In this document: piece by piece, positions 39,475 through 57,225 of the stretch
Layout of the letters: the number at the start of each line of letters is the position of its first letter
Numbering within the stretch: position 1 is the first letter of the stretch
Assembly (NCBI GenBank): GCA_965223325.1
Contig: CBDCWI010000002.1
Location: 1,600,001 to 1,664,000 of the forward strand
Source: Candidatus Multivoradales bacterium
GTDB lineage: Bacteria; Acidobacteriota; Thermoanaerobaculia; Multivoradales; Multivoraceae
Direction of reading: 5' to 3'
Length of the DNA stretch: 64,000 bases
Notes under the pieces: generated by a model
The model's database searches: none
Told to the model about the DNA's origin: nothing
The model's input: only the letters and a program-made list of their open reading frames with translations
Made by a program: the position numbers and the translations under genes

Positions 39475-40911
39475 ATGGAGGAGATTGGCTTGATCGATCA
39501 GCGACACCGGCGCACGGCCGTGCTCTACCTGGCGAACGACCTCGCCATGGTGGTCGCCGCCTTCCTCGCCGCCTGGTATCTGCGCTTCGAGTTGCAGTAC
39601 GTGCCCATCGAAGGAGACGTGCCAGCGTTTTCTCCCTACACCCGTCTGTTGCCCGTGATGCTCCTGGTCTGGCCGACGGTCTTCTACTTTCACGGTCTCT
39701 ACCAACCGCGCCGACTGCTCAGTCGAGTCGACGAGACGGTCGCTCTCACCATCGCGGTCCTCCTCGGCACAACCTTCCTGGTCGCAGGCACCGCGCTCTA
39801 TCGACCAGAAGTCGCAGGGACGCCGTTTACCTTCAGTCGCGTCTTCCTGGGGACCTTCTTCGCCACCAACCTGGTGATGACTGCGACCGGGCGCTTCATG
39901 TTGCGCTCCCTCTTGCGCTGGGTGCGCGTCCGCGGTCACAACATCCAGCGCATCCTGGTCGTCGGTGCCGGCAAGCTCGGCAAAGAGATCACCCAGAAAC
40001 TCCTCGGCCATCGAGAGCTGGGCCTCGAAGTGGTCGGGTTTCTCGACGATGATCTGGGCAAGGCCAAGGGTGAGTACTTCGGAGTGCCGGTGATCGGAAC
40101 GCTCGACGACGTCTCGGGCGTGATCGAACGGCAGAGAATCGACCAGGTGATGATCGCGCTCCCCCTCGATGCCTGGAAGAAGACCCAGCGGGTCCTCGAA
40201 CAGGCTGGCAACGAGTGTGTCGACGTCAAGGTCGTGCCGGACGTGTTTCAGTACGCCACCCTGCGCGCCTCGCTCGAAGAACTCGACGGCACCCCGGTCA
40301 TCAACCTCTCCCAGGTTCCGCTGCAGGGCTTTCGCGGCCTGGCCAAGCGCGGCATCGACGTCGCGCTGTCGGGCGTTCTGATGCTTCTCCTTCTGCCCCT
40401 CCTGCCCTTCGTAGCGGCGCTGATCTGGCTCGAAGATCACGGCCCCGTGTTCTACCGCCAGGAACGCATGGGCCTCGACGGTAGGCCTTTCATGATGCTC
40501 AAGCTGCGCTCGATGCGGGTCAACGCCGAGTCGACCACCGGGCCGGTATGGGCAGTTCGCGACGATCCGCGCCGCACACGATTCGGCGCCTTCCTACGTC
40601 GCACCTCGCTCGATGAGCTCCCGCAGCTCTGGAACGTCTTCCTGGGCGAGATGTCGCTCGTCGGGCCACGCCCCGAGCGCCCGACGTTCGTCTCCGAGTT
40701 CCGCCAGGAGATTCCGAATTACATGGTCCGCCATCGCGTCAAAGCCGGCATCACCGGCTGGGCGCAGGTGCATGGCTGGCGTGGCAACACGTCGATCAAG
40801 AAGCGCCTGCAGTACGACCTCTACTACATCCAGAACTGGACCCTGGGGCTCGACCTGAAGATCATGTGGATGACTCTGCGCCACGCGATGCAGCATCGCA
40901 ACGCGTACTAG
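39475..40911 (+). CDS. Undecaprenyl-phosphate glucose phosphotransferase (WcaJ/CpsE-type priming transferase)
   Basis: N-terminal TMs, VVGAG, KRGIDV, GPVFYRQERMG, SLDELPQLWNV..GEMSLVGPRPERP and KAGITGWAQV. Confidence 0.93.
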   Translation: MEEIGLIDQRHRRTAVLYLANDLAMVVAAFLAAWYLRFELQYVPIEGDVPAFSPYTRLLPVMLLVWPTVFYFHGLYQPRRLLSRVDETVALTIAVLLGTTFLVAGTALYRPEVAGTPFTFSRVFLGTFFATNLVMTATGRFMLRSLLRWVRVRGHNIQRILVVGAGKLGKEITQKLLGHRELGLEVVGFLDDDLGKAKGEYFGVPVIGTLDDVSGVIERQRIDQVMIALPLDAWKKTQRVLEQAGNECVDVKVVPDVFQYATLRASLEELDGTPVINLSQVPLQGFRGLAKRGIDVALSGVLMLLLLPLLPFVAALIWLEDHGPVFYRQERMGLDGRPFMMLKLRSMRVNAESTTGPVWAVRDDPRRTRFGAFLRRTSLDELPQLWNVFLGEMSLVGPRPERPTFVSEFRQEIPNYMVRHRVKAGITGWAQVHGWRGNTSIKKRLQYDLYYIQNWTLGLDLKIMWMTLRHAMQHRNAY

Positions 40912-41518
40912 TTTTGTGCGTGGTTTTGCGGCTTTTGGGTCGCGGGTGGAGGGTGCTCGCGCGATGCTGAGCGGGGATCGATCTCGACAAGCGTCGCGTC
41001 GTTACCACGCACAAAACTAGTGTCACCCCGCCAAGCGCAGCAAGCTGCGCGGCTCGGCTCGGAGCTTTGCTCCGAGCGCCGATGACGGAGCGACAGCTGA
41101 AAAATCGCAACGCGGACTAGTTCTGTGCGTGGTTTTGCGGCTTTTGGGTCGCGGGTGGAGGGTGCTCGCGCGATGCTGAGCGGGGATCGATCTCGACAAG
41201 CGTCGCGTCGTTACCACCCACAAAACTAGTGTCACCCCGCCAAGCGCAGCAAGCTGCGCGGCTCGGCTCGGAGCTTTGCTCCGAGCACCGATGCGGAGCG
41301 ACAGGTGGAAAGATCGCAACGCGGACTAGTTCTGTGCGTGGTTTTGCGGCTTTTGGGTCGCGGGTGGAGGGTGCTCGCGCGATGCTGAGCGGGGATCGAT
41401 CTCGACAAGCGTCGCGTCGTTACCACCCACAAAACTAGTGTCACCCCGCCAAGCGCAGCAAGCTGCGCGGCTCGGCTCGGAACTTCGTTCCGAGCACCCA
41501 TTGTGGGGCGACAGGCGA
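40907..41518 (+). repeat. Tandem array A: three 209-bp units of a CTAG-bounded hairpin element plus a second hairpin module
   Basis: Units start at 40907, 41116 and 41325. Unit 1 has a perfect 18-bp inverted repeat (40907-40924 / 41004-41021). A fragment of the second module recurs at 41601-41633. Confidence 0.95.
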
Positions 41519-41677
41519 ATATCGGAGCGCGGAGGACCTCTTGCCTGTTCTTTCTCAACCCACCTGCTAACCCAGTTCGCTCTTGGGTGACTGCTCCTTC
41601 TGTCACCCCGCCTGATGCAGCAAGCTGCGCGGCGCTTGATGTAGCCTCTTGGTACTCCCGATGAGAAGCCGAGATCT

Positions 41678-42805
41678 ATGCTTGTGACTGCGTTCTTGCT
41701 TGCTGCGGCGCTGACGACACCGCTCCGTGCCGACGGTGATGTTCGGCTTTCCAAGGGCACTGAGTACCTTGAAGCGGGAGGGCTTGGCTTGGCTGACGAT
41801 GTTTCGCTGGGGCGTGGTGCCGCGGTGGTGCTCTGGGATCAGACCGCGGCGCCGTCCGGCAATGGTGTTCCTGTGCAGAACGTCGAAGCTGCCCTGGATT
41901 CTTTCGACAGCATGGCGGCGGATGACTTCGAGGTGCCGGACGGTGACGGTTGGGCGATCTCGGGAGTCAACTTCACCCTTTCCTTCAGTGGCGCTGGGCC
42001 GGTCGATACGGTCGACCTCGCGATTCTGGCCGACGACGCCGGCGCGCCGGGCGCGGCCCTGTGGAGTTACAGCGGTCTTGGCGGCACGCTGAATGGGGCT
42101 GACCTCAACGTCGCGCTGCCCACGCCGGCGATTCTCGGGCCGGGAATCTACTGGCTGCAGGGTGTGATCAACATGGAGTTCGATTGCTGCGGCCAGGTGT
42201 TCTGGAGCAACAGCATCGACCAGACTCTCAGCCCCAGCCACTGGTCGAACCCCGGCGACGGTTTCGCGACCACCTGCACCACGTACATGCCGGTGCCAGT
42301 GTGCGGGGTCGGCGGGGGGTTCCCTGACTTCTTGTTTCAGATTCTCGGTGTCGCAGCGAACGCTGACCTCACGCTGACGAAGACCAGTGATGCCGAGGCG
42401 GTCACCGCGCATGACCGTCTCATCTACACCTTGACTGCCGGCAACCTGGGGCCGAACCAGGCCGACAATGTCGTGGTCACAGAGTCTCTTCCGGCGGGTC
42501 TCGACTTCGTCTCCACCAGCGGTTGCCTGGAAGATCCAGTGGGTGTCCCCACCTGCACCCTCGGAACCCTGGCCGCTGGAACAAGCGCCCAGTACACGGT
42601 GACTGTGAGGGTCGACGAGTCCGCTTCGGGCCTCTTGACCAACAGCGCCGAGGTCACTGCCGACGCCTTCGATAGCGACCCAACCACGGGCGGAGCCTCG
42701 ATTGCCGTGCGGGTCGGCGCCCCGGTACCGCTACTGCACCCGGTGGGGCTTGCCACCTTCGCTGCCTTGATCCTGCTTGCAGCTCGGGGGCGACTGCGGG
42801 GCTAG
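41678..42805 (+). CDS. Secreted DUF11-domain protein with C-terminal (IPTL-CTERM-like) anchor
   Basis: Signal peptide, ADLTLTKT...LIYTLTAGNLGP..ADNVVVTESLPAGL (DUF11) and the C-terminus VPLLHPVGLATFAALILLAARGRLRG. Confidence 0.85.
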   Translation: MLVTAFLLAAALTTPLRADGDVRLSKGTEYLEAGGLGLADDVSLGRGAAVVLWDQTAAPSGNGVPVQNVEAALDSFDSMAADDFEVPDGDGWAISGVNFTLSFSGAGPVDTVDLAILADDAGAPGAALWSYSGLGGTLNGADLNVALPTPAILGPGIYWLQGVINMEFDCCGQVFWSNSIDQTLSPSHWSNPGDGFATTCTTYMPVPVCGVGGGFPDFLFQILGVAANADLTLTKTSDAEAVTAHDRLIYTLTAGNLGPNQADNVVVTESLPAGLDFVSTSGCLEDPVGVPTCTLGTLAAGTSAQYTVTVRVDESASGLLTNSAEVTADAFDSDPTTGGASIAVRVGAPVPLLHPVGLATFAALILLAARGRLRG

Positions 42806-42965
42806 ACGAACACGCCCCTCGAACCGGACCTGGAGCACTCCGCTCGCCGTAGCAGCCGCGGCAGCAGGCGAAGAGGAGTGCGGAACTCGCCAGCCCGCAA
42901 AGCCGCTTACTCGCGCCCTATACTCTCGCCCAGTTTCCCCGCCACGCTCTCGGAATTCGGTTCTC

Positions 42966-44596
42966 GTGCGTAGATCACAGAAAAGACTTCTCCTCGCGCT
43001 CGCCATCCTGCCGCTCCTGTTGCTGCTCGCGGCGCTCGTCTACCAGATCGGCATGACCAGCCTCGAAGGTGACCCGCGCGGCTTTTGGGACAGCCTTGCG
43101 TGGGCGGCCGAAACCCTTTCGACGACCGGTTACGGTGAGGATGGGCGGTGGGCGCATCCGGTCATGGTGGTCTTCGTGATCGTGTTGCAGTTCGTCGGCG
43201 TCTTCCTGGTGTTTCTAGTCTTCCCGATCTACCTCATCCCGGTTCTCGAGGAACGCTTCGAAGCGCGCCTCCCCACCGAAGTCAAGCCGATGCATAACCA
43301 CGTGGTCATCTTCCGGTCTGGCCCGGCGGTCGAGCTACTGGTCGAACAACTCACCCACGCCGGGATCGAGACCTTGTTCCTCGAAGAAGACGAGGCCGTC
43401 GCACGGCGGCTCGTCGACCAGGGGCACAAGGTCCTCGTCGGCAGCATCGACGACGGCGTTCTGGAACGTGCCCACCTCGAGAAGGCGCGTTGTTTGATCG
43501 CCAACAGCTCAGACGACGAAGATGCGGCCGCGACACTCACCGCCCGCCAGCTCGGCTTCGAAGGTGACCTCTTGGCTTTGGTCGAGGAGCCCTTCCATCG
43601 TCAGCCCATGATGCTCGCGGGCGCGACCGCGACGTTCACCCCTCGCCATGTGCTCGGTGCAGTCCTGGCCGCACGCGCCAGTCGCCGCGTCAGCCCAGCC
43701 GTCGCTGGCGTCCAGTCGCTCGGCAAACGACTGCGGGTCGGTGAGGTTCACATTCGGCGATCGAGCGAGCTGGTCGGCCAGACACTAGAAGCGTCACACC
43801 TCGGTCAAACGACCGGAGCTACCGTGATCGGGCAATGGGTCGGCGGACGCCTCGAAGCTCCCGTCGGTCCCGATGCCGTCATCCAGCGGGTGCCAACCTG
43901 ATCGTCGTAGGCAGCGACGCAGCCATCGCTCGCCTGGGGGAACTCGGTCGTGGGACCTTCATGCTCAGTCGCCAGGGTCGATTTGTCATCGCCGGTTGCG
44001 GTGAGGTCGGGGCGAAGGTCCTGCAGCTGCTCCGAGACGTCGACGAAGACACCACCGTAATCGATCGGGATCCCACGAACGCGCCCGATGTCGTCGGAGA
44101 CGTACTCGACCCGCGAGTGCTCGAGAGCGCCGACGTCGACAGCGCCCAGGCGGTCATTCTGGCGCTCGACACCGACGCCGCAACGTTGTTCGCCACCGTC
44201 ATCCTGAAGGGTGTGGCCCCAGACGTTCCGATCTTTGCTCGCGTCAACCGAGCCGAGAACGTCGAGCGCATCCACGCCGCTGGCGCAGAGTTCGCCCGCT
44301 CTCTCAGCCAAGTCTCGGGTCAGATGCTCGTCCGCCGCTTGCTGGGCGAGGCCTCGATCGCGCTCGATCCACAGCTCAAGGTGCTGCAAATGGAAGCGAC
44401 CCTGATGGCCGGCAGCCATCCAGCCAGGATCGGCATCCGCGAACGCAGCGGGTGCTCGATCGTCGCCATCGAACGCGGCAGCGACCTGCTCACCGAGTTC
44501 GACGACGACCTCGAGATCCAGGCCAGCGACAAGGTCTACATATGCGGCTCGAGCGAAGCCACTGAACTCTGCCGGGAACTCTTCGCCCCGGAGTAG
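42966..44596 (+). pseudogene. Potassium channel / TrkA (RCK) family protein split by a 1-nt frameshift near 43887
   Basis: Pore motif TLSTTGYGE and RCK domains in ORF 42966-43901 continue in another frame (GANLIVVGS...IAGCGEVG). Adding one base in ATCCAGCGGG restores a single frame, e.g. VIQPGANL. Could be a sequencing error. Confidence 0.8.
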
Positions 44597-44622
44597 CGAG
44601 AGCAGGCCCTGACTCACTCAGA

Positions 44623-45917
44623 GCAGGGGGAGCGCAACGCAGAAGGCCTACGCCGTGGAGCGCCCGCGCCGCAAATAGGTCTTCAGCGGCGCCACACCAA
44701 ACCACGGCACGCCGGCCGCAAGCTCGCAAACAACCGGTGTCACTCGACACATCGAAGCCAAGAATCCGCGGCGCGCGCACGCCCATCGAAGTCAGAGGAC
44801 GCAAGTGCAGGGGAAGCGCCAACGCAGAAGGCTCACGCAGCGGACCGCTTGCGCCGCTAATGTGACTCTAGCGGCGCCGGTGGTAACGACCGCCCGCCAT
44901 CACGAGCTCGCGCGACCAACGCACCACCTCTCCAGCCCGCAGCTCGCGGGCCGCAAGCTCGCAAACACCGGTGTCACTCGTCACATCGAAGCCAAGAATC
45001 CGCGGCGCGCGCACGCCCATTGAAGGAAAGGAGCGCAGGTGCAGGGCGGCCGCCAACGCAGAAGGCGCACGCAGCGGACCGCTTGCGCCGCTAGTGTGAC
45101 TCTAGCGGCGCCGGTGGTAACGACCGCCCGCCATCACGAGCTCGCTACTCCAACGGCACTGCCCACCAAACCACGGCACGCGAGCCGCAAGCTCGCAAAC
45201 ACCGGTGTCACTCGACACATCGAAGCCAAGAATCCGCGGCGCGCGCACGCCCATTGAAGGAAAGGAGCGCAGGTGCAGGGCGGCCGCCAACGCAGAAGGC
45301 GCACGCAGCGGACCGCTTGCGCCGCTAGTGTGACTCTAGCGGCGCCGGTGGTAACGACCGCCCGCCATCACGAGCTCGCTACTCCAAGGGCACTGCCCAC
45401 CAAACCACGGCACGCGAGCCGCAAGCTCGCAAACACCGGTGTCACTCGACACATCGAAGCCAAGAATCCGCGGCGCGCGCACGCCCATTGAAGGAAAGGA
45501 GCGCAGGTGCAGGGCGGCCGCCAACGCAGAAGGCTCACGCAGCGGACCGCTTGCGCCGCTAGTGTGACTCTAGCGGCGCCGGTGGTAACGACCGCCCGCC
45601 ATCACGAGCTCGCTACTCCAACGGCACTGCCCACCAAACCACGGCACGCGAGCCGCAAGCTCGCAAACACCGGTGTCACTCGACACATCGAAGCCAAGAA
45701 TCCGCGGCGCGCGCACGCCCATTGAAGGAAAGGAGCGCAGGTGCAGGGCGGCCGCCAACGCAGAAGGCTCACGCAGCGGACCGCTTGCGCCGCTAATGTG
45801 ACTCTAGCGGCGCCGGTGGTAACGACCGCCCGCCATCACGAGCTCGCTACTCCAACGGCACTGCCCACCAAACCACGGCACGCGAGCCGCAAGCTCGCAA
45901 ACCACCGGCGACGCTAG
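44623..45917 (-). repeat. Tandem array B: four full 234-bp units, one partial unit and one degenerate unit of the same element family
   Basis: Units start at 44805, 45039, 45273, 45507 and 45741 (partial), with a deleted copy at 44623-44804. Each carries GTGGTAACGAC and the hairpin GCGCCGCTA(G/A)-tgtgact-CTAGCGGCGC. Confidence 0.95.
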
Positions 45918-46477
45918 AACTTAACGCCTGCTACGTCGTCGGCGGTGGTCGGCACGGCGGCTGCTGAACGCTGCCAGGGCTGCAGCTGCACCATCGCGGC
46001 GATGGTCGAGCGCGATGTCACCTCGCCGTCGACTGCAGTGAGGCGACTCGACGTCGTGGTGAGGGCGTGGTTGATCGTGTGGAAGGTCGCGTCGCCAGAG
46101 TTGACCTGGCAAAGATCACAGGGCATGTCCTGGATCGGGACGGCCCGCGTCGCCTGAATCTCGTGGACGTACTTCTCTTGACTGTCGAAGGCCGGCCCGT
46201 TCTGTTCCGAGATCCGCACGGTGACCGAATCTGTCTTATGGTCGTGCAGGATCTGAGCGGTGGCGACAGCCAGCCCTGACTCGTTGGCGTAGAAGGTCTT
46301 CTCAACCACCCGCTGGCTTGCAGAGAGGTCTCCCTCGAGCGAGGTGATCAGAGTCAGACTCAGCCCAACGGCGGTGAGCACGAACATCACCATCAGCGTG
46401 ATGACATAGGCGCTACCGGCTTCGGGATGGTTCTGCGGAGTCGGTCCGGAGCATGACGGATGGTTCTGGTTGAGCAC
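45914..46477 (-). CDS. PilX-like type IV pilus assembly/minor pilin protein
   Basis: GSAYVITLMVMFVLTAVGLSL...TFYANESGL (PilX N-terminal pattern). GTG start after GAGG. Confidence 0.75.
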   Translation of the reverse strand: MLNQNHPSCSGPTPQNHPEAGSAYVITLMVMFVLTAVGLSLTLITSLEGDLSASQRVVEKTFYANESGLAVATAQILHDHKTDSVTVRISEQNGPAFDSQEKYVHEIQATRAVPIQDMPCDLCQVNSGDATFHTINHALTTTSSRLTAVDGEVTSRSTIAAMVQLQPWQRSAAAVPTTADDVAGVKF

Positions 46478-46633
46478 TGGAGATTTCCTCAATAAACCTG
46501 AAAAAATAGTATGAGACACGAGGCAACGCCGTCGATAAATAGTATTATACACATTACACCAGAACAACGCACGGCTGATGTCGAGAGATGGCCCCGATAG
46601 CGTGAGTACGGCGTAAATTCTCTCGCTCGTCGC

Positions 46634-47809
46634 CTAGCGAGAGGTCAACTCCGCCATCGCGGCAGCAGCCTTTTGGGCGCTCTTGCTCCAGGTGTAGCTT
46701 CGCGCCCTTTCCAGCCCACGCCGACTGAGGTCGGCGCAGGCGGCCGCGTCCCCCCACAGGCTGGCGATCGCGTTGCCGAGACCGCCCGGTTCTTCCAGCG
46801 ACACCATGCGCCCGGCGTCGCCCAGGACCTCGGGGAACGGCTCACGGTCACTGGTGATGACCGGCGTGCCATGCCACATCGCTTCGACGACCGGCAAGCC
46901 GAAGCCCTCATAGAGAGAAGGCAGCACGAACATCCGAGCCCCCCGATAGAGCGCAGCCAGATCGTCGTTCGAGACGTAGCCGAGCCGGTGCACCCGCCCC
47001 GACAGCGGCTCGCTCTCCTGCAACGCGCTGATCTCACCGCTTCCCCACCCCAGAGGACCCGCCAGGACGACCGAGCCATCGAACCGATCGGCCAGGATCA
47101 ACTCGCGAACCGCACGCAGAAGACCCGCCAGGTTCTTGCGCGGCTCCACAGTCCCTACAAAGAGCAGGTAGCCACGCCCGAGGGTGCGCTGGATGGCCTC
47201 GGAGCGCATGCCTCGAGCTCTGAGAAGGTCACCCACTCTCTTCTCCGCTTCGCCTGCCGCGGGGGTGGTCCGTCGCTCATCGACTCCACCGGGCACCAGA
47301 CGAACCCGCGCTGGATCGAGCCCGAGCTCGTTCACCGCAGCACGACCGGTGGCTTCCGTAAGCACGAAGACTCGATCCGCACCGCGCACCGAAGGCCCTA
47401 CAACCCGCGCCAACGCCAATCGATTGCGACGCGACATCGTCTCGGGATAGCGCTTGAAGACCAGGTCGTGCAGGCTGACGATAGTCGGCAGCTCACCGAG
47501 GAGCGGCAACGGTAGGACCTGCAAAGGGCCCCAGAAGAGGTCGAGGTCTCGCCGGCGGACCTCCCGCGCCAGCCCCGACTGCAACCACATCGTCCCCCAG
47601 CGGGCCGTCAAGCCAGAGAGGCCGCGCCGCTCTGCGACCACCTCGCGCACATTCGCGGGCAGGGCATCCGGCAGGAGAGGCCTGGTCGTGAAGGCGTCGA
47701 AGCGCCACGAGGGCTCGAGCATCGTGAGCTCTTCGAGCAAGCTGCGCAGGTACACTCCGGTCCCGGTGAGAGGTGGCACTAGAGCACGAGCATCAATTCC
47801 GATTCGCAC
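46634..47809 (-). CDS. Glycosyltransferase family 4
   Basis: IGIDARAL...TGTGVY, GTVEPRKNL and YEGFGLPVVEAM. Confidence 0.92.
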   Translation of the reverse strand: MRIGIDARALVPPLTGTGVYLRSLLEELTMLEPSWRFDAFTTRPLLPDALPANVREVVAERRGLSGLTARWGTMWLQSGLAREVRRRDLDLFWGPLQVLPLPLLGELPTIVSLHDLVFKRYPETMSRRNRLALARVVGPSVRGADRVFVLTEATGRAAVNELGLDPARVRLVPGGVDERRTTPAAGEAEKRVGDLLRARGMRSEAIQRTLGRGYLLFVGTVEPRKNLAGLLRAVRELILADRFDGSVVLAGPLGWGSGEISALQESEPLSGRVHRLGYVSNDDLAALYRGARMFVLPSLYEGFGLPVVEAMWHGTPVITSDREPFPEVLGDAGRMVSLEEPGGLGNAIASLWGDAAACADLSRRGLERARSYTWSKSAQKAAAAMAELTSR

Positions 47810-47846
47810 GGGCGCTGACCCTATCAATGGGGGTTCAGAGACCGCA

Positions 47847-48920
47847 GTGGAGCGTCGCAGTCGGCGTCTTTTGACGAGCGCGACGATCTGGCTTTTCGTC
47901 TGCTGCTCCCTCGCCACAGGCTGCGAGCCGCCAGGGGGTCCGGCTCCCGGACCCCTGCTCTACGACCTCGGCTACAGCCTGCCCGTTGCCAGGGGCACCA
48001 CCGAAGTGCGCGTGCTGCGCCCGGGCGACGAAGCTTCCCGCGCCTTTCTCGGCGAGGGCTTCTCGTGGCGTGAGCGCGACGGCTCCGGGCGCAGCTTCGC
48101 GTGGAGTGACGGCCAACAGTCGACGGTCTACTTCAGGCTCTACGAGCCGCGACCCTTGCTTCTCAAACTCGGCGGAACCGCACATCCTTCGTTGGTTCGA
48201 GAAGGCCAGCCCCTCGAGATTCGGGTCATTGCGACCCCTGTGGCGACCGCTGACCCCACGACCGCGGCCCGGCAAAACGAAGGATCCGCCGTTGCCCGTT
48301 CGGCCTCCACCGCGGTGGGAACAGTTCACTTCCCCGGTGAGGCTACCCGCGACCCAACGATCGAGATCCCACGACACGTCCAGGGAAACGGGGAAGGTCT
48401 CGCAATCACGCTCGTCTACGGTGGGGAGGGCGAGAGCCGGCTGGCCCCGGAACGTGCGGCGGATGGCACCGGTCGCCAACTGGCGGTCGCCTGGCATGAA
48501 ATCCGTCTCGGCGACGCGCAGCCTGAAGCGGGTGAACCAGGACCGGTGAGCTTCGAACCGCTGCCGGGTCGAGATGGATCCCTGCTGCTCCCGACCGCCA
48601 CTCGCATCAGCTGGCAGGTCGACCTCCCACCTGATGCCCGTCTCGCTTTCCACGGCGTCGAGTTCCATGGCGACGCCCACCGGCTACGGATCGAGGTCCG
48701 CGCCGGTGCGGAGAGCGTCGCGGTCCGCGAGCTCAGCGCGTCGGCGCCTGCCTCCGAGTTGTCGCTTCTCGTGATACCCATCGAGCGCGAAGAGTGGACG
48801 AGGGTCGAACTGGCCCTCACCGCACTGCCAGAGCGCGACTGGCCGGGCCTCGACGGCCGGATCACGATCGAGCGCGCCCTCGTCCGCGAACCGGCGAGCG
48901 CTCCGGGCTCCGAGGGCTAG
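47847..48920 (+). CDS. Hypothetical lipoprotein (beta-sandwich rich)
   Basis: Lipobox LATGC. LGEGFSWRE...FAWSDG resembles accessory domains of surface-modifying enzymes. Confidence 0.65.
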   Translation: MERRSRRLLTSATIWLFVCCSLATGCEPPGGPAPGPLLYDLGYSLPVARGTTEVRVLRPGDEASRAFLGEGFSWRERDGSGRSFAWSDGQQSTVYFRLYEPRPLLLKLGGTAHPSLVREGQPLEIRVIATPVATADPTTAARQNEGSAVARSASTAVGTVHFPGEATRDPTIEIPRHVQGNGEGLAITLVYGGEGESRLAPERAADGTGRQLAVAWHEIRLGDAQPEAGEPGPVSFEPLPGRDGSLLLPTATRISWQVDLPPDARLAFHGVEFHGDAHRLRIEVRAGAESVAVRELSASAPASELSLLVIPIEREEWTRVELALTALPERDWPGLDGRITIERALVREPASAPGSEG

Positions 48921-48950
48921 TGCTGGAAGTGAGACCAAAGGGCGCAACGC

Positions 48951-51041
48951 TCAGGCCGAGCGCCGCGCTCCATCCTGCTCGCTAGAAGGGGCGATCGCCT
49001 TGTCGCTGCCGGCTTTCATCACCCGGCTCGCTTCGCGCAGGGCGCGCGCCACTTCGCGGCGCTCCGCCGGTGAGAGCTCTTGCTGGCCGAAACTCTCGCG
49101 CAAGTACAACCCCAACAGGCGATCGGCTGACGCCTTGGATTCCGGGAATCGCAGCACCACCCGTTCGCGCACATCGACCGGTGCCACCGCCGCATCGATC
49201 TCGACGCCACGCTTCTCGGCGCGCAGCCGAAAGCGCCCGAACGCGCGCGTTGCCGAGAACCTCGGACGCGACAACCAGGCGCCGGTCAGGAGGCCTGAGG
49301 CGGCGAGAAGTGCCCACCAGATCATTGCCTCCGGGGGCGACTGACGTTCGAGCTCATCAGCGGTTGCGGGCAGCGAAACCGGTTCAATGAGGCCGAGCAT
49401 CAGCTCTCGCACCGAGGCGAAAAAGCTTCGCTGATCGCGCGCACTGAACGAAATGATGTAGCGGTCCCAGCGAAACTGCACCCAGTCCCATGCCTGCCGC
49501 AACACGAGGTGGAGCGACGGCGGTGCCGCGATCGGTCGGCCGGCGGGTGGCGTCGGGTCGAACGTCACCCAGCCTTCTTCGGGAATCCAGGCTTCGACCC
49601 AGGCGTGCGCGTTGTTTTGTCGCACCACGTAGTAGCCCTCGATGGGGTTGTACTCCGCACCCAGGTAGCCGGTGACGAACCGCGCCGGGATGCCCTCGGC
49701 CCGGAGCATAAGAACCATCGCCGAGGCAAAGAACTCACAGTGGCCACTCTTGAACGTAAACAGAAAGTCGTCGATGGGTGCATCGGCACTTCGCCGCAAG
49801 AAGTCGAGCGTGTACTCGTACTCACGAATCAGATGAGACTCGACCCGTCGGGCGCGCACCCGGCTGGTTCCTTCACCGGCGACCTCGGAGGCAAGAGCAC
49901 GGATCTCGGGGCTGATCCCATCGTCGGCCATCGTCGGCTCGTCGAAGTCGAGCGGGTCGGGCGGCAGAGCGAGCGCTACCGGCAAAGACGACAGACCAAC
50001 CTCGAATTCGAGGACTGTGCGCGGGGGCGTCGGGAAGAGAAAGCTACCGCCGATGGTGCGGCGCAGCGCCGGCTCCTCCATTCGCAGCTCCATCGCCTCG
50101 ATGGGAAGCGGGAGGCCGCGAGCCCGGAGTGGCTGCATCCAGACTTTCATCCGTGATGACGGCCGCCCCTCCGAGAGTACATAGCGACCGGCTCGATCGC
50201 GGCCGATCGTGTCCATCACCGTCGCCGGCTGCCACGATGCTCCGACGTAGCGGTCGTAGGCGCCGCCTTTCCAGCGGAAGTCGCTCGCGGGCAGGTCGGC
50301 CTGGTCCATCTCGATGCGAATGGCAACTTCGGTACTCGTGCGCGCCTGGCCAATGACGTCGAGCGTCACCTCGTCGCTGAAGCCGAGACCGAAGCTGGCG
50401 GTGGACGAGTTGGTTCTGCCGGTCAGGTACGGACTGCCGAAGCGCGGCAGCAGAGTAAAGATCGGGACTGCAACCAATGCGGCCGCCAACGTCATGGCGG
50501 CGACGAAGCGCTTCACCGAGCGCGGCCCGAGAACCAGGCGCCCGGGTTCTTCGTGAAGGTCTTTGAGGTGGAGATAGGTAAAGCGCGTCAGGAGCAACAG
50601 GCCAAAAGACATCACCGCGACCAGGTAGACGACGATCGCCGGATGGGTACTGGTTGCGATCGAGGTCACGAACACGAAGAAGAGGCCAATCGTGGCGTGC
50701 CACTTATCGCGCTCGTTGCGTAGCGAGAAGAGTTTGGCTACCAAGGCAAAGAGAGCCAGATGCATCATCGGCCGGACCAGCGAACCAGCAAACCACACCG
50801 TCATGTCCAGCACCAGGAAGGGCAGGTAGAGGCAACCCAGGGCGTTGAGCATCCAGGGACGCAACCACCTCTCGGTGCCACTCGCCGCCCGGTAGAGGTA
50901 GACCCCGATCGCCGCGAGAAACAGCACCAGGAAAGGCCAGCCGACGACCCCCCCGGGGCGCGGCTCGTTGAGTGGAAGGGGCAACGGGGCCAGCAAGGCA
51001 AAGACGCCGAGCAGCAGTCGCTTGTGGCGAGCGAACTTCAC
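48951..51041 (-). CDS. TgpA-like transglutaminase-domain membrane protein (DUF3488)
   Basis: TM region, GHCEFFASAM, AHAWVEAW and WVTFDPTP (Cys-His-Asp triad). Confidence 0.92.
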   Translation of the reverse strand: MKFARHKRLLLGVFALLAPLPLPLNEPRPGGVVGWPFLVLFLAAIGVYLYRAASGTERWLRPWMLNALGCLYLPFLVLDMTVWFAGSLVRPMMHLALFALVAKLFSLRNERDKWHATIGLFFVFVTSIATSTHPAIVVYLVAVMSFGLLLLTRFTYLHLKDLHEEPGRLVLGPRSVKRFVAAMTLAAALVAVPIFTLLPRFGSPYLTGRTNSSTASFGLGFSDEVTLDVIGQARTSTEVAIRIEMDQADLPASDFRWKGGAYDRYVGASWQPATVMDTIGRDRAGRYVLSEGRPSSRMKVWMQPLRARGLPLPIEAMELRMEEPALRRTIGGSFLFPTPPRTVLEFEVGLSSLPVALALPPDPLDFDEPTMADDGISPEIRALASEVAGEGTSRVRARRVESHLIREYEYTLDFLRRSADAPIDDFLFTFKSGHCEFFASAMVLMLRAEGIPARFVTGYLGAEYNPIEGYYVVRQNNAHAWVEAWIPEEGWVTFDPTPPAGRPIAAPPSLHLVLRQAWDWVQFRWDRYIISFSARDQRSFFASVRELMLGLIEPVSLPATADELERQSPPEAMIWWALLAASGLLTGAWLSRPRFSATRAFGRFRLRAEKRGVEIDAAVAPVDVRERVVLRFPESKASADRLLGLYLRESFGQQELSPAERREVARALREASRVMKAGSDKAIAPSSEQDGARRSA

Positions 51042-52141
51042 GCCTTGCCTCCCACCGCGCGCCGCGAATCGACTTCGAAAGCTCCGCTATCACGCCTCGC
51101 CGCCTGCTCCTGGGGACCACCGAGCCGGAGAACCTTGCCCGAGCCCCGTGGCAGCTCGAGCGGTTCGGCCTGTCGCGGGCGCACCTCGACCAGCGCCAGC
51201 GCCTCGAGGAGCGCTCTGCGTTGGCGCGCGCCGCCCGCCGACGGCAGATGGTCGTCACGAGTCAGGAGCTCAATCTCGAAGCCCTGCGCGAGCGCCACGG
51301 TGCCGGCCGTTGCCGCCTCGCGCACCCGGAACTCGAAGAGCTCGAGTTCCTGACCAGCGAGAGGTCCGACGGCGTTGTCGAGCACGATCGCCAGGCGTCG
51401 ACTCTGCTCGCGGGCCCGTTCCCTCAGGATGAAACGTCCGGTTCGCGCCGACTGCTTCCAGTGAATGTCGCGCGGGTCGTCGCCTCTACGCATCTCACGC
51501 AGGCCGTAGAGGTCGTGCCCGAAACCGCGCTGGCTCGAGGGCTCTTCGCCGATCTGGCCGGGCACGTCGAGGCGGCGCTCGCCCTCGGCGAGCAGGCGCG
51601 GATAGACCAGGACTTGGCCGTCGATCAAAGCGGTGCGCGAAATGCGAAACAGTCCGAACGGGAACAGAGTGCTCAACCACATTCTCTCGGGGCGCCACCG
51701 GCCGCGGGCCGGCAACGTGACCTCCTGCTCGACCCGCACGACGTCCATCGCACGGCGACGGCGACGGAGGTGTACGACCAGGGCCGGAGCAGCCGCATTC
51801 GAAAGAGCGATCTGAACCAGCCAACGAGGAAGAAACGCCGAGGAGTTGGAGACCCGCACATCGATCGACGCCGGCTCGCCCGCAAAGACCTCATCCTGGG
51901 CCGACACCTCGACCTCGAGCGCGCGGAGGTTGCGTTTCCCTGCAACGACCGACAACAGGCCGACCGCCATCATCGCCGCCATCAACATGTAGAGGGCGTT
52001 GTTGCCGGTGTTCGAACCGGCTACAACGATCACCGCACCGAACAAACCAAACCAGAGCCCGACGCGAGTCAGCTGGACGCCGGTCGGTCGCTCGGTGTTC
52101 TCGCCCTCTGGTAGAGGGTTGGTTTTCCGGTCCTCGGACAC
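51038..52141 (-). CDS. DUF58 domain protein
   Basis: NTGNNALY, FPFGLF and LREMRRGDDPRDIHWKQSAR. Confidence 0.92.
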   Translation of the reverse strand: MSEDRKTNPLPEGENTERPTGVQLTRVGLWFGLFGAVIVVAGSNTGNNALYMLMAAMMAVGLLSVVAGKRNLRALEVEVSAQDEVFAGEPASIDVRVSNSSAFLPRWLVQIALSNAAAPALVVHLRRRRRAMDVVRVEQEVTLPARGRWRPERMWLSTLFPFGLFRISRTALIDGQVLVYPRLLAEGERRLDVPGQIGEEPSSQRGFGHDLYGLREMRRGDDPRDIHWKQSARTGRFILRERAREQSRRLAIVLDNAVGPLAGQELELFEFRVREAATAGTVALAQGFEIELLTRDDHLPSAGGARQRRALLEALALVEVRPRQAEPLELPRGSGKVLRLGGPQEQAARRDSGAFEVDSRRAVGGKA

Positions 52142-52156
52142 CTGAACGTGAGCCCC

Positions 52157-53128
52157 TCAGGCCGGCACTGGAATCTCGGCCACCAGTTCACCCATCGCGC
52201 GACGGCGCGCCTGGGAGTCGGCCCCGGGGCGAGCGAGAATCAAGCGGTGCGCGAGAACGTCGGTGACGACGTTCTGCACGTCGCCCGGGGTGGCGAAGTC
52301 ACGCCCTTCGTACAGCGCCAGCGCCTGGACCGCCCGGTAGAGCCCCTGTACGGCGCGAGTTGAAACGCCCAGGGCAAAGCGTTCGCTGTCGCGGGTGCGA
52401 TGGGCGATCGCGAGAATGTAGTCGGCCAGCTTCTCTGCCACCTTGACCCGCGGCACGGCGCGCTGCAACCGGACCAACCGATCCGCGTCGAGGACAGGTT
52501 CGAGACCGTACAAGCGGTCGCCCACTCCGCCGTCGAGCAGCAGGTTGCGCTCCTCGGATGCCGAGGGGTAGCCGATCTGGAGCGTCATCAGAAAACGATC
52601 CAACTGCGACTCGGGCAGCGGGTAGGTCCCGTGGTGTTCGAGCGGATTCTGGGTAGCGAGAACGATGAACGGCTCGGGAAGCCGGTGGCGCTCACCCTCG
52701 GCAGAGACCTGATTCTCGCTCATCGCCTCGAGCAACGCGGACTGAGTCTTGGGCGTTGCCCGGTTGATCTCGTCGGCGAGCACGACGTTCGCAAAGATCG
52801 GTCCCCGGGTGAATCGAAACGACTCGCTGCGCTGGTCGTAGACCGAAACGCCGAGAATGTCGGACGGCAGGAGGTCGCTGGTGAACTGAATGCGCTGGAA
52901 CTGCACCCCGAGACTTGCGGCGAGTGCCCGCGCCAGGGTGGTCTTACCGACCCCCGGAACATCCTCGATCAAGACATGCCCGCGGGCCAGGAGGGAGACG
53001 ATGGCGAGGCGAATCACTTCGCGCTTGCCCCGAACGATCGACGCGACGTTGTCTTCGAGGCGCTTTAGGACTTCAGTTGGTTCGTCGAGCGCAAGGACGG
53101 TTTTCGATGATGAGGGTTCCGGCAACAT
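52157..53128 (-). CDS. moxR: MoxR family AAA+ ATPase
   Basis: EDVPGVGKT, RIQFTSDLLPSD, LADEINRA, ATQNP and LPESQLDRF. Confidence 0.95.
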   Translation of the reverse strand: MLPEPSSSKTVLALDEPTEVLKRLEDNVASIVRGKREVIRLAIVSLLARGHVLIEDVPGVGKTTLARALAASLGVQFQRIQFTSDLLPSDILGVSVYDQRSESFRFTRGPIFANVVLADEINRATPKTQSALLEAMSENQVSAEGERHRLPEPFIVLATQNPLEHHGTYPLPESQLDRFLMTLQIGYPSASEERNLLLDGGVGDRLYGLEPVLDADRLVRLQRAVPRVKVAEKLADYILAIAHRTRDSERFALGVSTRAVQGLYRAVQALALYEGRDFATPGDVQNVVTDVLAHRLILARPGADSQARRRAMGELVAEIPVPA

Positions 53129-53406
53129 GTGAGGATCCTGAGGGGCTTTGAGGAAAAGAGAACGAGGAGGGGCGCGGTCAAGAGGGCCGGGCACCCTGAG
53201 GTCCATCCTTCATGAACCCGCTTGACTTCCTTCGGCGCAGGAGACAGGAACTTCCAAGAAGAGCGGTCAGCGAGCCGTCGCCCTACGGTCCCCAAAAACT
53301 AGGATATCGCATTTTTCTAACAAAAGCTCCCCCGAGAACCGCCTCCAGATCGTAGTCGGACTGGGTCTCTTCGACCCCCCTTGGCCTGACCGGTTCCCTC
53401 TCGGCG

Positions 53407-53955
53407 TCAGGAGGCGAGGGCCGCGTACTCGGGGTAGGCGCCCCGATCGGCCATTGGAATCGACGGCCGGACCTCGACGTGGAACCCGTCATTCTCCTGG
53501 AAGTCGACATCTTCGAGAACGATCGTCAGCTGACTCGCCGACCCCTTCTGGATGTCCGACGTATCGACGGTTCGACGCCAGTGTTGGCGCTCCTGGCCGG
53601 CGGCATCGGCCTGCGAAATATCGAGCGTCAGCTGCGGAAGGGTGTCGGCAGAGTCTGTCGACACGAGAACGCTGAGCAGTACGTCGGGGTTCGGGGGCTC
53701 GATGACCACCGCCTCCTCTTCGCTGGCCGCGTCGCCTGTGTCGGCAGTCGCCTCGTCGGTGACTTCATCGACCAGGTCGGCGGCTGCTTCACGCAGGACG
53801 AAGTTCTGGAGCTCGGCTTTGTACGCCGACCGCGCCGCCTCGAACGCCTCCTCGGGGCTCTTCTGCCGACAGGCGGAGGCAAACGCTGCGACACAGATCA
53901 AGCTGGCGGCAAGCAGCGCGCCCGTTGAGAGAGAGAAGGGGTAAGACCGTTTCAT
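53407..53955 (-). CDS. Hypothetical lipoprotein
   Basis: MKRSYP...AAFASAC lipobox and an acidic linker. Confidence 0.75.
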   Translation of the reverse strand: MKRSYPFSLSTGALLAASLICVAAFASACRQKSPEEAFEAARSAYKAELQNFVLREAAADLVDEVTDEATADTGDAASEEEAVVIEPPNPDVLLSVLVSTDSADTLPQLTLDISQADAAGQERQHWRRTVDTSDIQKGSASQLTIVLEDVDFQENDGFHVEVRPSIPMADRGAYPEYAALAS

Positions 53956-54260
53956 CACAGATTCTCCTGGAGGGCCAACGAGCCTCTGAACGAGGGGCTC
54001 CCGGCTTCTAGTTGGCACGAACCTCGGTTCGGCGCGGTTCGCATGTTGTCGTCTTGCTCGAGTTGCGGGCAGTCTACCTGTGCTCGTCGATAGGGGATCT
54101 TCGACCGGCCTGGCCCTCCTCCGCAGCGCGGATCGGGCGCCAAAGGCTAGTCATTTGGGGGAGTTCTAGGCTAGAATTACGAGATTCAAGGCGTCACCTT
54201 CGCCATCGGCTCCACCCTCGGCGGGTTCCACATCGCCTGGGAAACACTGCCCACACCACC

Positions 54261-54707
54261 ATGAAATCCGACAAAGTCGCGCAACTCGACCAACTGCTCG
54301 GAACGGCCAGTGCCGCCCGAGACCACGAAAAGCAACGCCAGCGTGAGCGTCTGATCGAAGAACGTCGCCACCTGCATACTTTTCGCCAGCTCACCGACCG
54401 GGTCATTCGCCCGACGGTGCGTGAGTTCATGCAGCGCCTCGAGAGCGGCGGCCATCTGACCCGCCTGCGCAGCATGGCCGAGAACCGCATTCGCTTCGAC
54501 GTCCTGCTCGAGAGCGGCAGCCGGGTCGCCGGTCTGCTCGAGATCGAGCTCGTCGAGGGGAGCCGTGGCCAGATTCGCACCAAGGCGCTACGCAACCTCG
54601 GCAGCATGTTCGAGGACACGACTCCCATCGCCGAGTTCGACGCCGACGTTCTAGGAGACCTTCTGCTCCGCTTCGTGCGCGAGCTCACCTCGCTGCCGCC
54701 GCGCTAG
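54261..54707 (+). CDS. Hypothetical protein (148 aa)
   Basis: ATG at 54261 with GC3-rich codons. Helical N-terminus followed by beta-strands. Confidence 0.65.
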   Translation: MKSDKVAQLDQLLGTASAARDHEKQRQRERLIEERRHLHTFRQLTDRVIRPTVREFMQRLESGGHLTRLRSMAENRIRFDVLLESGSRVAGLLEIELVEGSRGQIRTKALRNLGSMFEDTTPIAEFDADVLGDLLLRFVRELTSLPPR

Positions 54708-54712
54708 CCGAT

Positions 54713-55705
54713 TCAGGCGCTCTGCGATTCCCAGAAGCGTTGGCCGAGCGATCCCGCCAGAATCACCTCGGGCATCAGTCCGATGCCGAAGCGCTCACGG
54801 ACCGCGGCGCGTGCCCGGCGCATGAGGGTGAGCACGTCCTCGGCGGTGGCGCCGCCCAGGTTGACGATCACGTTGGCGTGTTTCTCGCTGATCTGGGCAC
54901 CACCAACTCGTAGGCCCTTCAGTCCACAGGCGTCGATCAGGCGACCGGCGTGGTCGCCCTCCGGGTTCTTGAAGATCGAACCGACATTGGGCTTTCCCGA
55001 AGGCAGGCTGGCCCAGCGCTTCTTGTTGAGCTCGTTGATGCGCGCCAGGGCACGGGCACCATCGCCGCGCTCGAGCTGGAAGGTCGCAGCGAGAACCAGC
55101 TCTCCGGTCTCCTCGATCCGGGTGCGTCGGTAGCCAGGATCGAGCGCGCCAGTCGGTACCGACGCGATCACCCCCTGCCGGTCGACCAGTGTGGCGGTCA
55201 CCAGCACGTCCTTGACCTCGGTACCGTAGCAGCCGGCGTTCATGCGAACGGCACCACCCACCGAGGAAGGAAAGCCCGATAACGCCTCGAGACCGAGCAG
55301 GTTCTGCCGCGCCGTCTGCTGCGCGAGACGGGCCAGCGGAACAGCCGCTCCCGCGATCACCTGCTCGCCCTCGATGTGCCACTCCGCCAGTTCACCGGCC
55401 AGTCGCAGGACGATCCCTGCGAGGCCCTCGTCGGGAAAGAAGACATTCGAGCCGAGACCGAGAACAAAAAAGGCACACCCGGTGCGCGCCGCCAGGCGCA
55501 CGACACTCGCCGCCGCCTGTTCACTGTGGGCGGTCACCAGGAACTCTGCCGCACCGCCGATGCGCAAAGTCGACGAACGCGCCAGCGGTGCGTTGGCTTC
55601 GACCTCGAGATCGGCGATCGCTTCGAGGTCGGCACGGCGGACCGTTCCCGCCGGGTCTTCGGCGCCGCGGGGAGAGTCTCCGCGGTTGCGTTCAGTGGTC
55701 GACAT
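54713..55705 (-). CDS. murB: UDP-N-acetylmuramate dehydrogenase
   Basis: [28 protein letters not shown] and [10 protein letters not shown]. Confidence 0.95.
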
Positions 55706-55781
55706 GGGTACCTGCCAGCTCCAGCGGCCCTCTGGTCCTCTGACGCCCGCTAACTCGAGCGAACAGAGAATTTACGCCTGC

Positions 55782-55810
55782 TTGACGCCTCGCCTCGAAG
55801 GCGCTACTGT
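55782..55810 (+). promoter_or_regulatory. Putative sigma-70 promoter of recA
   Basis: TTGACG-17 nt-TACTGT. Confidence 0.55.
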
Positions 55811-55910
55811 CAGTCTACCCCCTACTGCACCGGAGACCCCTCGAGCGACTCTGAGATCTCCCGATGGCGGCCCACCACTTCTCCCCAAAGATCCAAGGAG
55901 CGAGTTCCAC

Positions 55911-57005
55911 ATGGCACAAAGCAAACAAGGCGACAAAGAAAAAGCGATTGATGGCGCCCTCAGTCAGATCGAACGCCAGTTCGGCAAGGGCGCGATCATG
56001 CGCCTGGGCCAGTATGAGCACGTCGGTATCGAGTCGATCCCCACCGGCTCGATCGCCGTCGACCACGCCATCGGTACCGGCGGCTTCCCGCGCGGGCGCG
56101 TGGTCGAAGTCTATGGGCCCGAGTCGAGCGGCAAAACCACCCTCGCCCTTTCCGTCGTTGCGGGCGCACAACAAATGGGTGGCTCGGCGGCCTTCATCGA
56201 CGCCGAGCACGCGCTCGACGCTGAATACGCCACCCGCATCGGCGTCGACATCGATCAGCTGCTGGTCTCACAGCCCGACAGCGGCGAACAGGCGCTCGAA
56301 ATCGCCGAGATGCTGGTGCGCTCCAACGCACTCGACATTATTGTCATCGACTCGGTGGCCGCCCTCGTGCCGCGCGCCGAGCTCGAAGGCGAAATGGGCG
56401 ACTCGCACGTTGGCCTCCAGGCCCGCCTGATGTCGCAGGCCCTGCGCAAGCTCACCGCCATTGTCGCCAAGAGCAACACCTGTCTGGTGTTCATCAACCA
56501 GATCCGCGAGAAGATCGGGGTCATGTTCGGTAGTCCCGAAACCACTACCGGTGGCCGGGCGCTCAAGTTCTACTCATCGGTGCGCATCGACATCCGTCGC
56601 ATCGCGGCGATCAAGGATGGCGATGTCGTCGTGGGCTCGCGAGCACGCGTCAAAGTGGTCAAGAACAAGGTCGCGGCGCCGTTCCGTCAAGCCGAGTTCG
56701 ACATCGACTACGGCGAAGGCATTTCAAGGCCGGGCGAGCTCGTTGACCTGGGAGTCGAGCACAAGGTGGTCCAAAAGAGCGGCGCCTGGTACTCGGCCGG
56801 CGACGTGCGTCTCGGCCAGGGACGCGAGAACGCCAAGCAGTTCATGCGCGACAATCCCGAACTCGCCTGGGAGATCGAAGTGCAGATTCGCGAAGCACTC
56901 GGTCTACCCGAGCGCGTCGGTGGCAAACCCGCCGCGGCGGGTCCTGAGGTCCCGCCGCCAGACGCCGAAGCCGCGGCAACCGGTGCCGACGCCGTAGAGA
57001 ACTAG
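55911..57005 (+). CDS. recA: Recombinase A
   Basis: [40 protein letters not shown] and [12 protein letters not shown]. Confidence 0.99.
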
Positions 57006-57225
57006 CGCTTCGCGTGGTTTCGGCCGTTGTTTCGCGGGCCTTGGTCGGGGCGGCGGCGATGGTGGATTGACCATCTCGTGCTGGCCCTGCGTCGTTACCA
57101 CGCGAAGCGCTAGTGTCACTCTTGCCGCGCAGGCGGGTCCGCTGGGCGGGCAGCATGCCTCCGGCGGCCGCCCTGCACTAGCGCTCGTGGACTGCCAGGA
57201 TCCGTCGCGCGCGGCGGATCCTGGC
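57001..57225 (+). repeat. Solo copy of the CTAG-bounded element family, starting at the recA stop codon
   Basis: Perfect 18-bp IR ACTAGCGCTTCGCGTGGT (57001) / ACCACGCGAAGCGCTAGT (57097-57114). Shares GGCGGCCGCCCTGCAC with array B. Confidence 0.9.

Follow-up and report, generated by a model that had tools for sequence, protein, structure and literature searches.

Repetitive extragenic palindromes (REPs), together with their paired and mosaic forms (REPINs and bacterial interspersed mosaic elements, BIMEs) and the REP-associated tyrosine transposases (RAYTs), are the closest described systems to the repeat reported here. In the portions of the literature cited, REP termini often supply TAG stop codons (PMC3733652), GT[AG]G guides and 'double-foot' REPs of the form GT[AG]G…C[TC]AC have been described (PMC6006769), a GTGG guide directs cleavage at CC or CA in one RAYT (PMC8266576), and a rolling-circle model has been proposed for the amplification of BIMEs (PMC3333891). 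How REP/REPIN-type elements move, restore their symmetry and amplify are still open questions. We analysed a 64,000-nt stretch of DNA from Candidatus Multivoradales bacterium (the window, G000:C2:1600001-1664000; the source genome, G000, comprises 6.69 Mb at 64% GC, and its 16S rRNA reads as probably acidobacterial), in which an initial annotation had pointed to hairpins of about 113 bp at the ends of three genes: a wcaJ-like sugar transferase gene, a pilX-like gene and recA. These hairpins belong to a real genome-wide family, undescribed as such, which we regard as a variant of REP/REPIN-type elements and whose arms differ between loci, pair with each other and take in native codon bases of the host gene.

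Anatomy and arm pairing

A strict pattern recovered 20 copies, a first hidden Markov model (HMM) 189 matches in 70 clusters, and the final HMM, run on an analysis copy of the genome with introns removed, 192 matches in 65 oriented loci, bearing out the expectation of further copies beyond the window. An intact head element stands at 52 of the 65 loci, and three more heads lie outside the HMM matches. The statistics below use 50 heads, for which inclusion required pairing at 9 of the first 11 arm positions; positions −12 and −13 lie outside that filter. The tree of copies is star-like with long tips (median 0.33 changes per site), its bootstrap support not being settled, and the copies spread in an old burst.

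The head element is gene-less, about 240 bp long and built of two long-range stems, modules A and B. The 113-bp hairpin, initially taken for the whole element, is module A, and the unit continues for about 130 bp beyond the second CTAG. In module A, an arm of 12–13 nt with GTGGT is separated by a loop of about 78 nt from ACCAC and its matching, complementary arm; the GTGG(T)…(A)CCAC core is near-invariant across copies, whereas the interior motifs TCGCG…CTCG once proposed as part of the consensus are absent from that of the family. Module B opens with (C)GTCAC, closes with GGATYC and forms the second long-range stem, which carries an AA bulge. The far end shows neither a conserved terminal repeat nor a duplication, and the 3′ end fades. 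On the sense strand, G and T make up 70% of the A loop, and this G/T-rich strand gave the lower fold in 45/50 copies. A subfamily has an extra C-run/G-run hairpin where module B begins. A protein-coding origin was rejected by eye, the copies showing frequent 1-nt insertions and deletions.

Two collapsed forms were also seen. In the gyrB-gyrA spacer (L139:1000-1250) only 3 nt of the A loop are left, so that a perfect hairpin of 18 bp covers the gyrB stop, and in a short variant (L140, in the G000:C2:90925 region, and again at C2:952741) it is the B loop that is reduced to 3 nt. The latter keeps the AA-bulged stem, which points to the stem as the conserved part.

Pairing between the arms is almost purely Watson–Crick. 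It was found in 48–50 of the 50 heads at each position from −1 to −12 and in 30 at −13 (13.9 by permutation), and fell to chance level beyond. Complementary arms had been correctly noted at the three original loci (with one T/C mismatch in the pilX-like copy), but they span 12–13 nt plus GTGGT rather than 8 nt. Among 600 arm pairs there were 12 mismatches, one of them G-T on the sense strand; on the antisense strand G-T accounts for 7/12, as expected from transitions alone. Both stems covary, with 125 cells changed on both sides versus 32 in shuffles of a 33-copy alignment; none of 500 shuffles reached the observed count, slid controls gave 15–28, and one-sided changes amounted to two in 885 cells (33 copies, both stems), those of G-U type being nearly absent. 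Outside the element, 0/626 GTGGT..ACCAC pairs lying 60–130 bp apart had flanks with at least 11/12 bases paired. Because of this and of the covariation excess over shuffles, the hairpins are not a product of chance. No covariation was observed within the loops, and no loop column covaries with the flank, the far arm excepted.

Invertases need perfect inverted repeats, and the perfect, locus-specific repeats found here would suit an invertible switch in which module A flips between 17–18-bp inverted sites, a locus-specific core preventing cross-recombination. The module A loop, however, has the same orientation relative to module B in 50/50 heads, with none reversed, and we find such a switch scarcely conceivable.

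The tags invite another explanation. CTAG bounds module A at both ends in the 20 strict-pattern copies and TAG lies at −11 in 31 of 50 heads, consistent with a classical DDE-type MITE (a miniature transposable element with inverted repeats) of the IS5 or IS630 family whose insertion at CTAG or TA duplicated the target, an origin that the initial annotation had proposed. Yet CTAG is not a fixed boundary: the first tag may be CTAG, GTAG, TTAG, GTAA, TTGA or another sequence, and the far one is always its complement (GTAG/CTAC, TTAG/CTAA) rather than a direct copy. The second CTAG is thus internal and changes along with the first, the element runs 130 bp past it, and the arms are not conserved between loci (mean identity 0.38 at −8..−2 in 40 heads). 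Among 107 repeated regions of at least 400 bp, no multicopy insertion sequence (IS) with matching ends was found. This origin is largely refuted, and we consider it very improbable.

The same pairing data bear on an RNA-level element, either a hairpin in the 3′ untranslated region that would stabilise the mRNA, a possibility also raised initially, or a sequence copied by a group II intron reverse transcriptase (RT). Stop-anchored copies are always sense to the upstream gene, the sense strand folds lower, and the genome holds 14 intact RT copies. Only one of the 12 sense-strand arm mismatches is G-T, however, and the loops are without covariation. No catalogued Rfam family matched in the window (0 matches), and at E ≤ 0.5 on three loci the intron alone matched; that intron lies antisense, in near-identical copies, and is far younger than the repeat. 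A structured RNA is accordingly disfavoured, and we rate the whole RNA-level account as improbable.

Host codon bases in the arms

An in-frame stop codon falls at −7 to −18 in 46/50 heads and none does in the other four, compared with 4% for random intergenic positions and 16% for any TAG. In 35 heads the stop lies exactly at −11 (31 TAG, 2 TAA, 2 TGA), while a crude genome-wide count of stop usage gave TGA 2703, TAG 1727 and TAA 290. Stop anchoring alone is nonetheless ordinary, since a conventional 166-bp CTAG MITE of the same genome (24 full copies, for example at a gene end in C2:994080-997485) has an end on a TAG stop in 18/24 copies. This control has fixed inverted ends bounded by CTAG and shows no pairing beyond that tag (3, 7 and 8 of 24). 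Translation-coupled targeting was dropped as unnecessary on the same ground; it may apply to the TGA and TAA copies.

A second genome of the same genus (G001) has no element at recA, wcaJ, prkA, argG, a deaminase gene, a TonB receptor gene or gyrB, which allowed the gene ends to be compared. C-termini in G000 are native at wcaJ, prkA, the deaminase, the TonB receptor and gyrB; the recA tail is variable, and argG is about 5 residues shorter than in G001. The prkA product ends NNLWKD*TGA in both genomes, with its stop at −7, and the far arm pairs 12/12 across five native coding bases plus TGA. Likewise, gyrB ends N[LIV]D[IV]* in 5/5 relatives, with its stop at −8, and there the far arm pairs 13/13 across five native coding bases plus TGA. 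The gyrB head arm matches the host at positions 12–13, where the distal copy differs, and sister copies that share the 8 inner bases differ at −12/−13, each fitting its own host.

The inner bases follow descent instead. Similarity of the body correlated with similarity of the inner arm (Mantel r = 0.26, p = 0.0004, 40 heads), while the upstream flank showed no correlation; supported sister clades share arm length or sequence, other sister pairs differing widely, and the same inner 8-mer occurs at four or more loci. Within the 8 nt after the stop, 13/32 positions match G001 in four genes (hand count), a figure that speaks for neither view. That the inner bases are inherited yet the outer ones are native host coding bases implies that the arms have been copied onto each other in place. 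From the divergence of the tips and the 12 mismatches in 600 pairs, we infer that arm-to-arm copying has run well above the mutation rate. The early observation that pairing and spacing are kept rather than arm sequence therefore stands, although selection on pairing, offered as its cause, is probably incomplete as an explanation; copying fits the host codon match better.

Tandem arrays occur at 34/50 head loci, with a period mostly of 206–325 bp, and duplications mostly start between −13 and +21 of GTGG. A piece of the element's own left arm (at least 7 nt) recurs at the distal junction in 16/55 cases versus 7.8 expected, sometimes twice. Where head and daughter arms differ, 17/20 differences favour the head. 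In the prkA array (L079:2470-3250), a further and distinct module A, whose own arms pair at 11 of 13, is nested in one unit.

These features could also arise if the element began at GTGG and its far arm acted as a DNA guide of 13 nt, pairing on insertion with the gene end that is targeted and being rewritten afterwards to the new flank, in an extension of IS608-type guide pairing. Such a guide would explain why the far arm fits native coding bases, why sister copies with identical inner bases diverge at −12/−13 towards their own hosts, why daughters often begin right at GTGG and why the gyrB head arm, but not the distal copy, fits the host at 12–13; pairing of REPIN tails with their target has been proposed by Bertels and Rainey (PMC3116915, in the part cited here). 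The inner 8 nt, on the other hand, are inherited, and an 8-mer shared by four or more loci is more than host sites could supply. Copying in place accounts for the host match without a guide, the head-versus-daughter differences would be given by ancestry alone, and no enzyme was found. We regard a self-reprogramming guide as doubtful. In a wider proposal, the far arm would be a guide or splint of 12–13 nt rewritten from any gene end that the element reaches, each copy being reprogrammed to its own site. Such a protein-assisted, DNA-guided and self-reprogramming single-strand transposition, with a preference for gene ends and with strand-specific mutations trailing into the genes nearby, seems to us rather unlikely as well.

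Strand-specific traces and possible mobilisation

A one-sided trace accompanies the copies, a G/T skew that lies downstream of the element on its sense strand. Of the downstream genes in convergent orientation, 17/22 are enriched in C+A at four-fold sites (p = 0.001); upstream genes show no such gain (23/48), and a codon skew looked for there was absent. Substitutions on the sense strand relative to the consensus were more frequent for C>T than for G>A (0.058 vs 0.036) and for G>T than for C>A (0.048 vs 0.018). An excess of C>T and G>T is the pattern expected of exposed single-stranded DNA. One family of Y1-transposon ends in the same genome has a similar outward G/T skew (0.33 over the initial 50 nt, n = 9) together with tandem reiteration, and the plain CTAG MITE is without skew (n = 66 ends). 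No strand bias with respect to the replichores was seen for elements (27/50) or introns (8/14).

Our preferred reading, to which we give a slightly better than even chance, is that of a REPIN/BIME-type repeat that acts as single-stranded DNA, is non-autonomous and depends on a Y1/HUH nuclease. The initial suggestion of a non-autonomous REP-like repeat is supported. A RAYT- or TIRYT-like Y1/HUH nuclease would bind the folded sense strand and nick it near the left arm, and extension from the nick would displace the sense strand over a few hundred bases. The downstream skew, as well as the surplus of C>T and G>T changes, could follow from such displacement. A tandem unit would be added when the strand re-joins further downstream, as the BIME model has it, and circles that are excised could seed new sites, which would persist chiefly where genes end. 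With each round, or else by template switching during replication on the 17–18-bp stem, one arm would be copied onto the other, by which mutations and host codon bases alike would become symmetric; where an arm is coding, selection would set the direction from host to element. The element is most likely selfish and not a regulator.

Searches for the enzyme gave the following picture. A survey of neighbours covered 94 of 104 open reading frames picked by a crude score, leaving out nine intron RTs and one Y1 gene; the 94 are unrelated housekeeping or surface genes and include no transposase, in line with the earlier remark that none lies nearby. The genome contains 28 Y1_Tnp matches, 38 by protein search and 31 to NF047646, none of the last exceeding its cut-off. 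Y1 elements occur close to arrays in two places (0.6 and about 0.9 kb away), each with its own ends. Other candidates were set aside: IS110 (6 PF02371 matches, none at element loci), IS91/Y2 as mobiliser (one weak fragment, no link), an Ssn-type GIY-YIG nuclease (one PF01541 match, in a 610-aa frame, no link) and DUF559 (0 matches). A single 273-aa RAYT-like gene (G000:C1:1305880-1306900) has on both flanks direct, not inverted, blocks of short CCCGGG-containing repeats, and dense clusters of Y1/HUH transposons of about 1.4 kb with long inverted ends, TIRtron-like and of several families, occupy G000:C1:2125282-2144090 and C2:4454631-4487830.

Several observations weigh against a Y1/HUH-driven repeat. 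The search for a copy beside a transposase, RAYT or nuclease gene located no cognate enzyme: the Y1 flanks that were read carry other repeats or inverted ends, and the nearest Y1 gene, 593 bp from an array, has inverted ends of its own. G001 contains 13 Y1 matches but no element, so the presence of Y1 genes explains nothing by itself. A second family of Y1 ends is without skew (n = 16), and the substitution spectrum was polarised by the consensus only. No intact head was present at 13/65 loci; in two of these 13 the head is full but its arms have decayed, to 13 and 14 of 17 pairs, so arm correction is not absolute, and the others are truncated or their start was missed. Unlike canonical REPs, the element has no short local palindrome after GTGG, and the arms are 38% identical between loci, compared with 89–99% for the REPs of REPINs in the cited part of PMC3337134. 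Finally, the left boundary is not fixed, no close strain showing an empty site.

The lack of a cognate enzyme in the genome would be natural if the repeat were a relic whose mobiliser is gone, with host template switching on the quasi-palindrome keeping the arms matched and slippage building the arrays. The star-like tree and its long tips are consistent with this, and short inverted repeats are known to become perfect through template switching (PMC5941160). Generic slippage, however, would not be expected to produce the sharp 12–13-nt edge at 50 loci, array starts clustered at the head (34/50 loci) or a one-sided skew, and the plain CTAG MITE of the same genome has neither skew nor pairing beyond its tag. 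We consider an enzyme-free relic unlikely, though less so than the other alternatives.

A group II intron has exploited the repeat. Fourteen near-identical introns of 1910 bp are present in the genome, none of them in the window, and were recognised by RF02005 (180.6 bits) and TIGR04416 (342 bits, cut-off 300). They lie on the antisense strand after CGCTTG, and their flanks place 13/14 inside the repeat, where the stem B bulge is the insertion site. Elements contain 71 occurrences of the 12-mer that spans this site, and there is a single one elsewhere. Nucleotide 184 of the intron begins CAAGCG, which is complementary to the site and is a candidate exon-binding site 1 (EBS1) only. Group II introns usually start with GUGYG, and all 14 copies start with GATACG. 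Far more recent than the repeat, the intron parasitises it and is not its mobiliser. Related intron remnants in G001 (G001:C2:1352288-1353064 and C3:2315739-2315788) are fused to transposase fragments that we take, by their motifs, to be IS91-like.

Homologue searches were bound to the consensus. The pattern gave two single non-self matches without HMM support in 41 genomes, and seven single non-self matches, none with arms or HMM support, in 401 genomes of the class (a sample to which G001 does not belong). The DNA of the recA copy reached at best E 7.5e-4 over no more than 47 bp outside its own genome among 61 genomes; a sequence model applied to 101 genomes, with 20 candidates scored in each, gave a best non-self score of 19 bits versus 144–169 for the genome's own copies; and the subfamily pattern had one non-self match, in coding DNA, in 57 genomes of the family. 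Viral contigs returned 0 matches, metagenome contigs one, inside dapF, and genome contigs nine, the best with an arm of 11 of 17 and one a 13-bit HMM match. By these searches the repeat appears lineage-specific, not being found outside one genome among those covered. Within that genome, contig ends share tens of kilobases (C1:1-60543 with C2:1-50264; C1:2088678-2104179 with C2:4534597-4546094), which may reflect a duplicated prophage-like region or an assembly overlap.

Copies in the window and comparison with known systems

All three hairpins of the initial annotation were recovered at their positions, 40908-41020 (113 bp), 45917-45804 on the minus strand (114 bp) and 57002-57113 (112 bp), and at 3/3 loci the TAG stop of the upstream frame (sugar transferase, PilX_N and RecA, respectively) lies inside the first CTAG. 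Three loci was the correct count; the number of copies is larger, with nine plus one remnant, two of the loci being tandem arrays.

The wcaJ-like sugar transferase gene (39475..40911, plus strand) has its native stop (…NAY*TAG) within the left arm of element 1 (40907..40924, plus), which consists of two coding bases, TAG and 8 nt, then GTGGT; the far arm (41004..41021, plus) is ACCAC followed by 13 nt complementary to 40907-40919. In G001, wcaJ has an identical C-terminus and TAG and no element. The array at 40895..41514 (plus) comprises three units of 209 bp with heads at 40908, 41117 and 41326; its second module is degenerate, and the daughters have 2 arm mismatches. On the minus strand, the TAG of the pilX-like gene (PilX_N, 45914..46567) falls within the left arm of element 2, whose module A forms the head hairpin at 45804..45918 with its one T/C mismatch. 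The accompanying array (44695..45908, minus) holds 5.2 units of 234 bp, in which daughters begin just inside GTGG without a left arm, and ends in a decayed remnant at 44677-44621. Between these two convergent arrays, at 41678-44596, lie a DUF11 protein gene and two TrkA-domain genes. In G001, TrkA matches are about 3.3 Mb away and wcaJ abuts a glycosyltransferase gene; the DUF11/TrkA block may have moved.

The recA copy is single. The gene (55242..57005, plus), with its RecA domain starting at residue 234 of the open frame, ends in a TAG at 57003-57005 that lies in the left arm of element 3, and recA of G001 likewise terminates in TAG, without an element. Module A (57001..57114, plus) has a 13-nt arm plus GTGGT, an unstructured, G/T-rich loop of about 78 nt, and ACCAC plus the complementary 13-nt arm, its stem pairing 18/18. 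Module B (57115..57221, plus) starts with the GTCAC tag, forms a long-range stem between 57124-57135 and 57206-57215 with a 2-nt bulge and ends in GGATCC; the site occupied by the intron in other copies corresponds to 57129/57130 on the minus strand. The 3′ tail (57222..57252, plus; family consensus …GGCTTCGATGGAAC) fades without a terminal repeat. Neither a sigma-70 promoter nor a terminator consensus was found in this copy. We compared contigs of four sequencing runs with window positions 50000-64000 and found no empty recA site, no joint falling there among the 15 of 54 joints listed; contigs drop rare variants. One sequencing-run contig crosses the recA copy unchanged, and three runs with a small share gave short identical pieces. 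Among the runs listed as containing the sequence there was no RNA run.

The weight of these results is limited by the confinement of the family, so far, to one uncultured-type genome and by the lack of an enzyme. Still, 50 natural replicates in one genome make copying from arm to arm and from host to element visible, with a sharp 12–13-nt edge. With the skew into neighbouring genes and candidate Y1 enzymes in the genome, the family provides a concrete substrate for assays of cleavage and arm correction, and the intron shows such a repeat serving as a near-exclusive safe landing site.

Literature searches listed no account of arms that are specific to a locus and pair with codon bases of the host; related elements from acidobacteria may be present in the supplement lists of PMC3733652 and PMC6006769. 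CTAG/TA MITEs are likewise short, non-coding and often placed on TAG stops, as the 166-bp example shows, but they have fixed terminal arms and a direct duplication, whereas here the arms are variable, one of them is internal and nothing is duplicated. Integron attC sites have RYYYAAC/GTTRRRY boxes and extrahelical bases, with one site per cassette gene. We rejected attC, the repeat having no conserved AAC/GTT at the stem base, a perfect stem and core genes upstream (recA, guaB, argG). An IS110/IS1111 bridge RNA was also rejected, with no IS110 recombinase at element loci and no flank-covarying loop column besides the far arm.

DNA–DNA pairing of an internal sequence with the flank is shared with guide targeting in the IS200/IS605 family (IS608; PMC3333891, PMC8266576). 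In IS608 the guide comprises four fixed nucleotides at a hairpin foot; the present arms pair over 12–13 nt in simple antiparallel fashion, and no two loci share the pairing. With its GTGG…CCAC core the element recalls the REPs termed 'double-foot', which belong to TnpA-Y1 subclass 2.4 (PMC6006769), except that here the foot is enclosed by further variable arms of 12–13 bp, the interior has no conserved fold and no cognate gene was found. The (C)GTCAC opening and GGATYC close around the module B stem recall CGTC-tagged REPs and NTS repeats with their Ssn nucleases (PMC3733652, PMC11893778, as far as cited). Their loops are of a few nucleotides instead of about 70, and the 610-aa GIY-YIG protein is the only candidate in place of an Ssn-type gene. 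TIRtrons, whose TIRYTs are Y1 transposases with non-REP inverted ends, are reported in Acidobacteria in the cited part of PMC3733652, and several families occur in this genome. One TIRtron-like family here shows the same tandem reiteration, gene-end location and outward G/T skew, but none of the ends read shares sequence with the element.

Relative to REPINs and BIMEs, the element's arms are not palindromic REPs, are not conserved between loci and pair with host codon bases, and it has a second long-range module and no repeat-flanked RAYT that we could find. Because its arms are not conserved and no flanked RAYT was found, it is not a REP/REPIN member. What it has in common with REPIN/BIME-RAYT systems, as portrayed in the cited parts of PMC3116915, PMC3337134, PMC3333891, PMC3733652 and bioRxiv 10.1101/2021.07.10.451892, is an extragenic, non-coding inverted-arm unit of about 110 bp with a divergent spacer, tandem clusters that include flanking DNA, termini that supply TAG, a bulged stem and lineage-specific spread.

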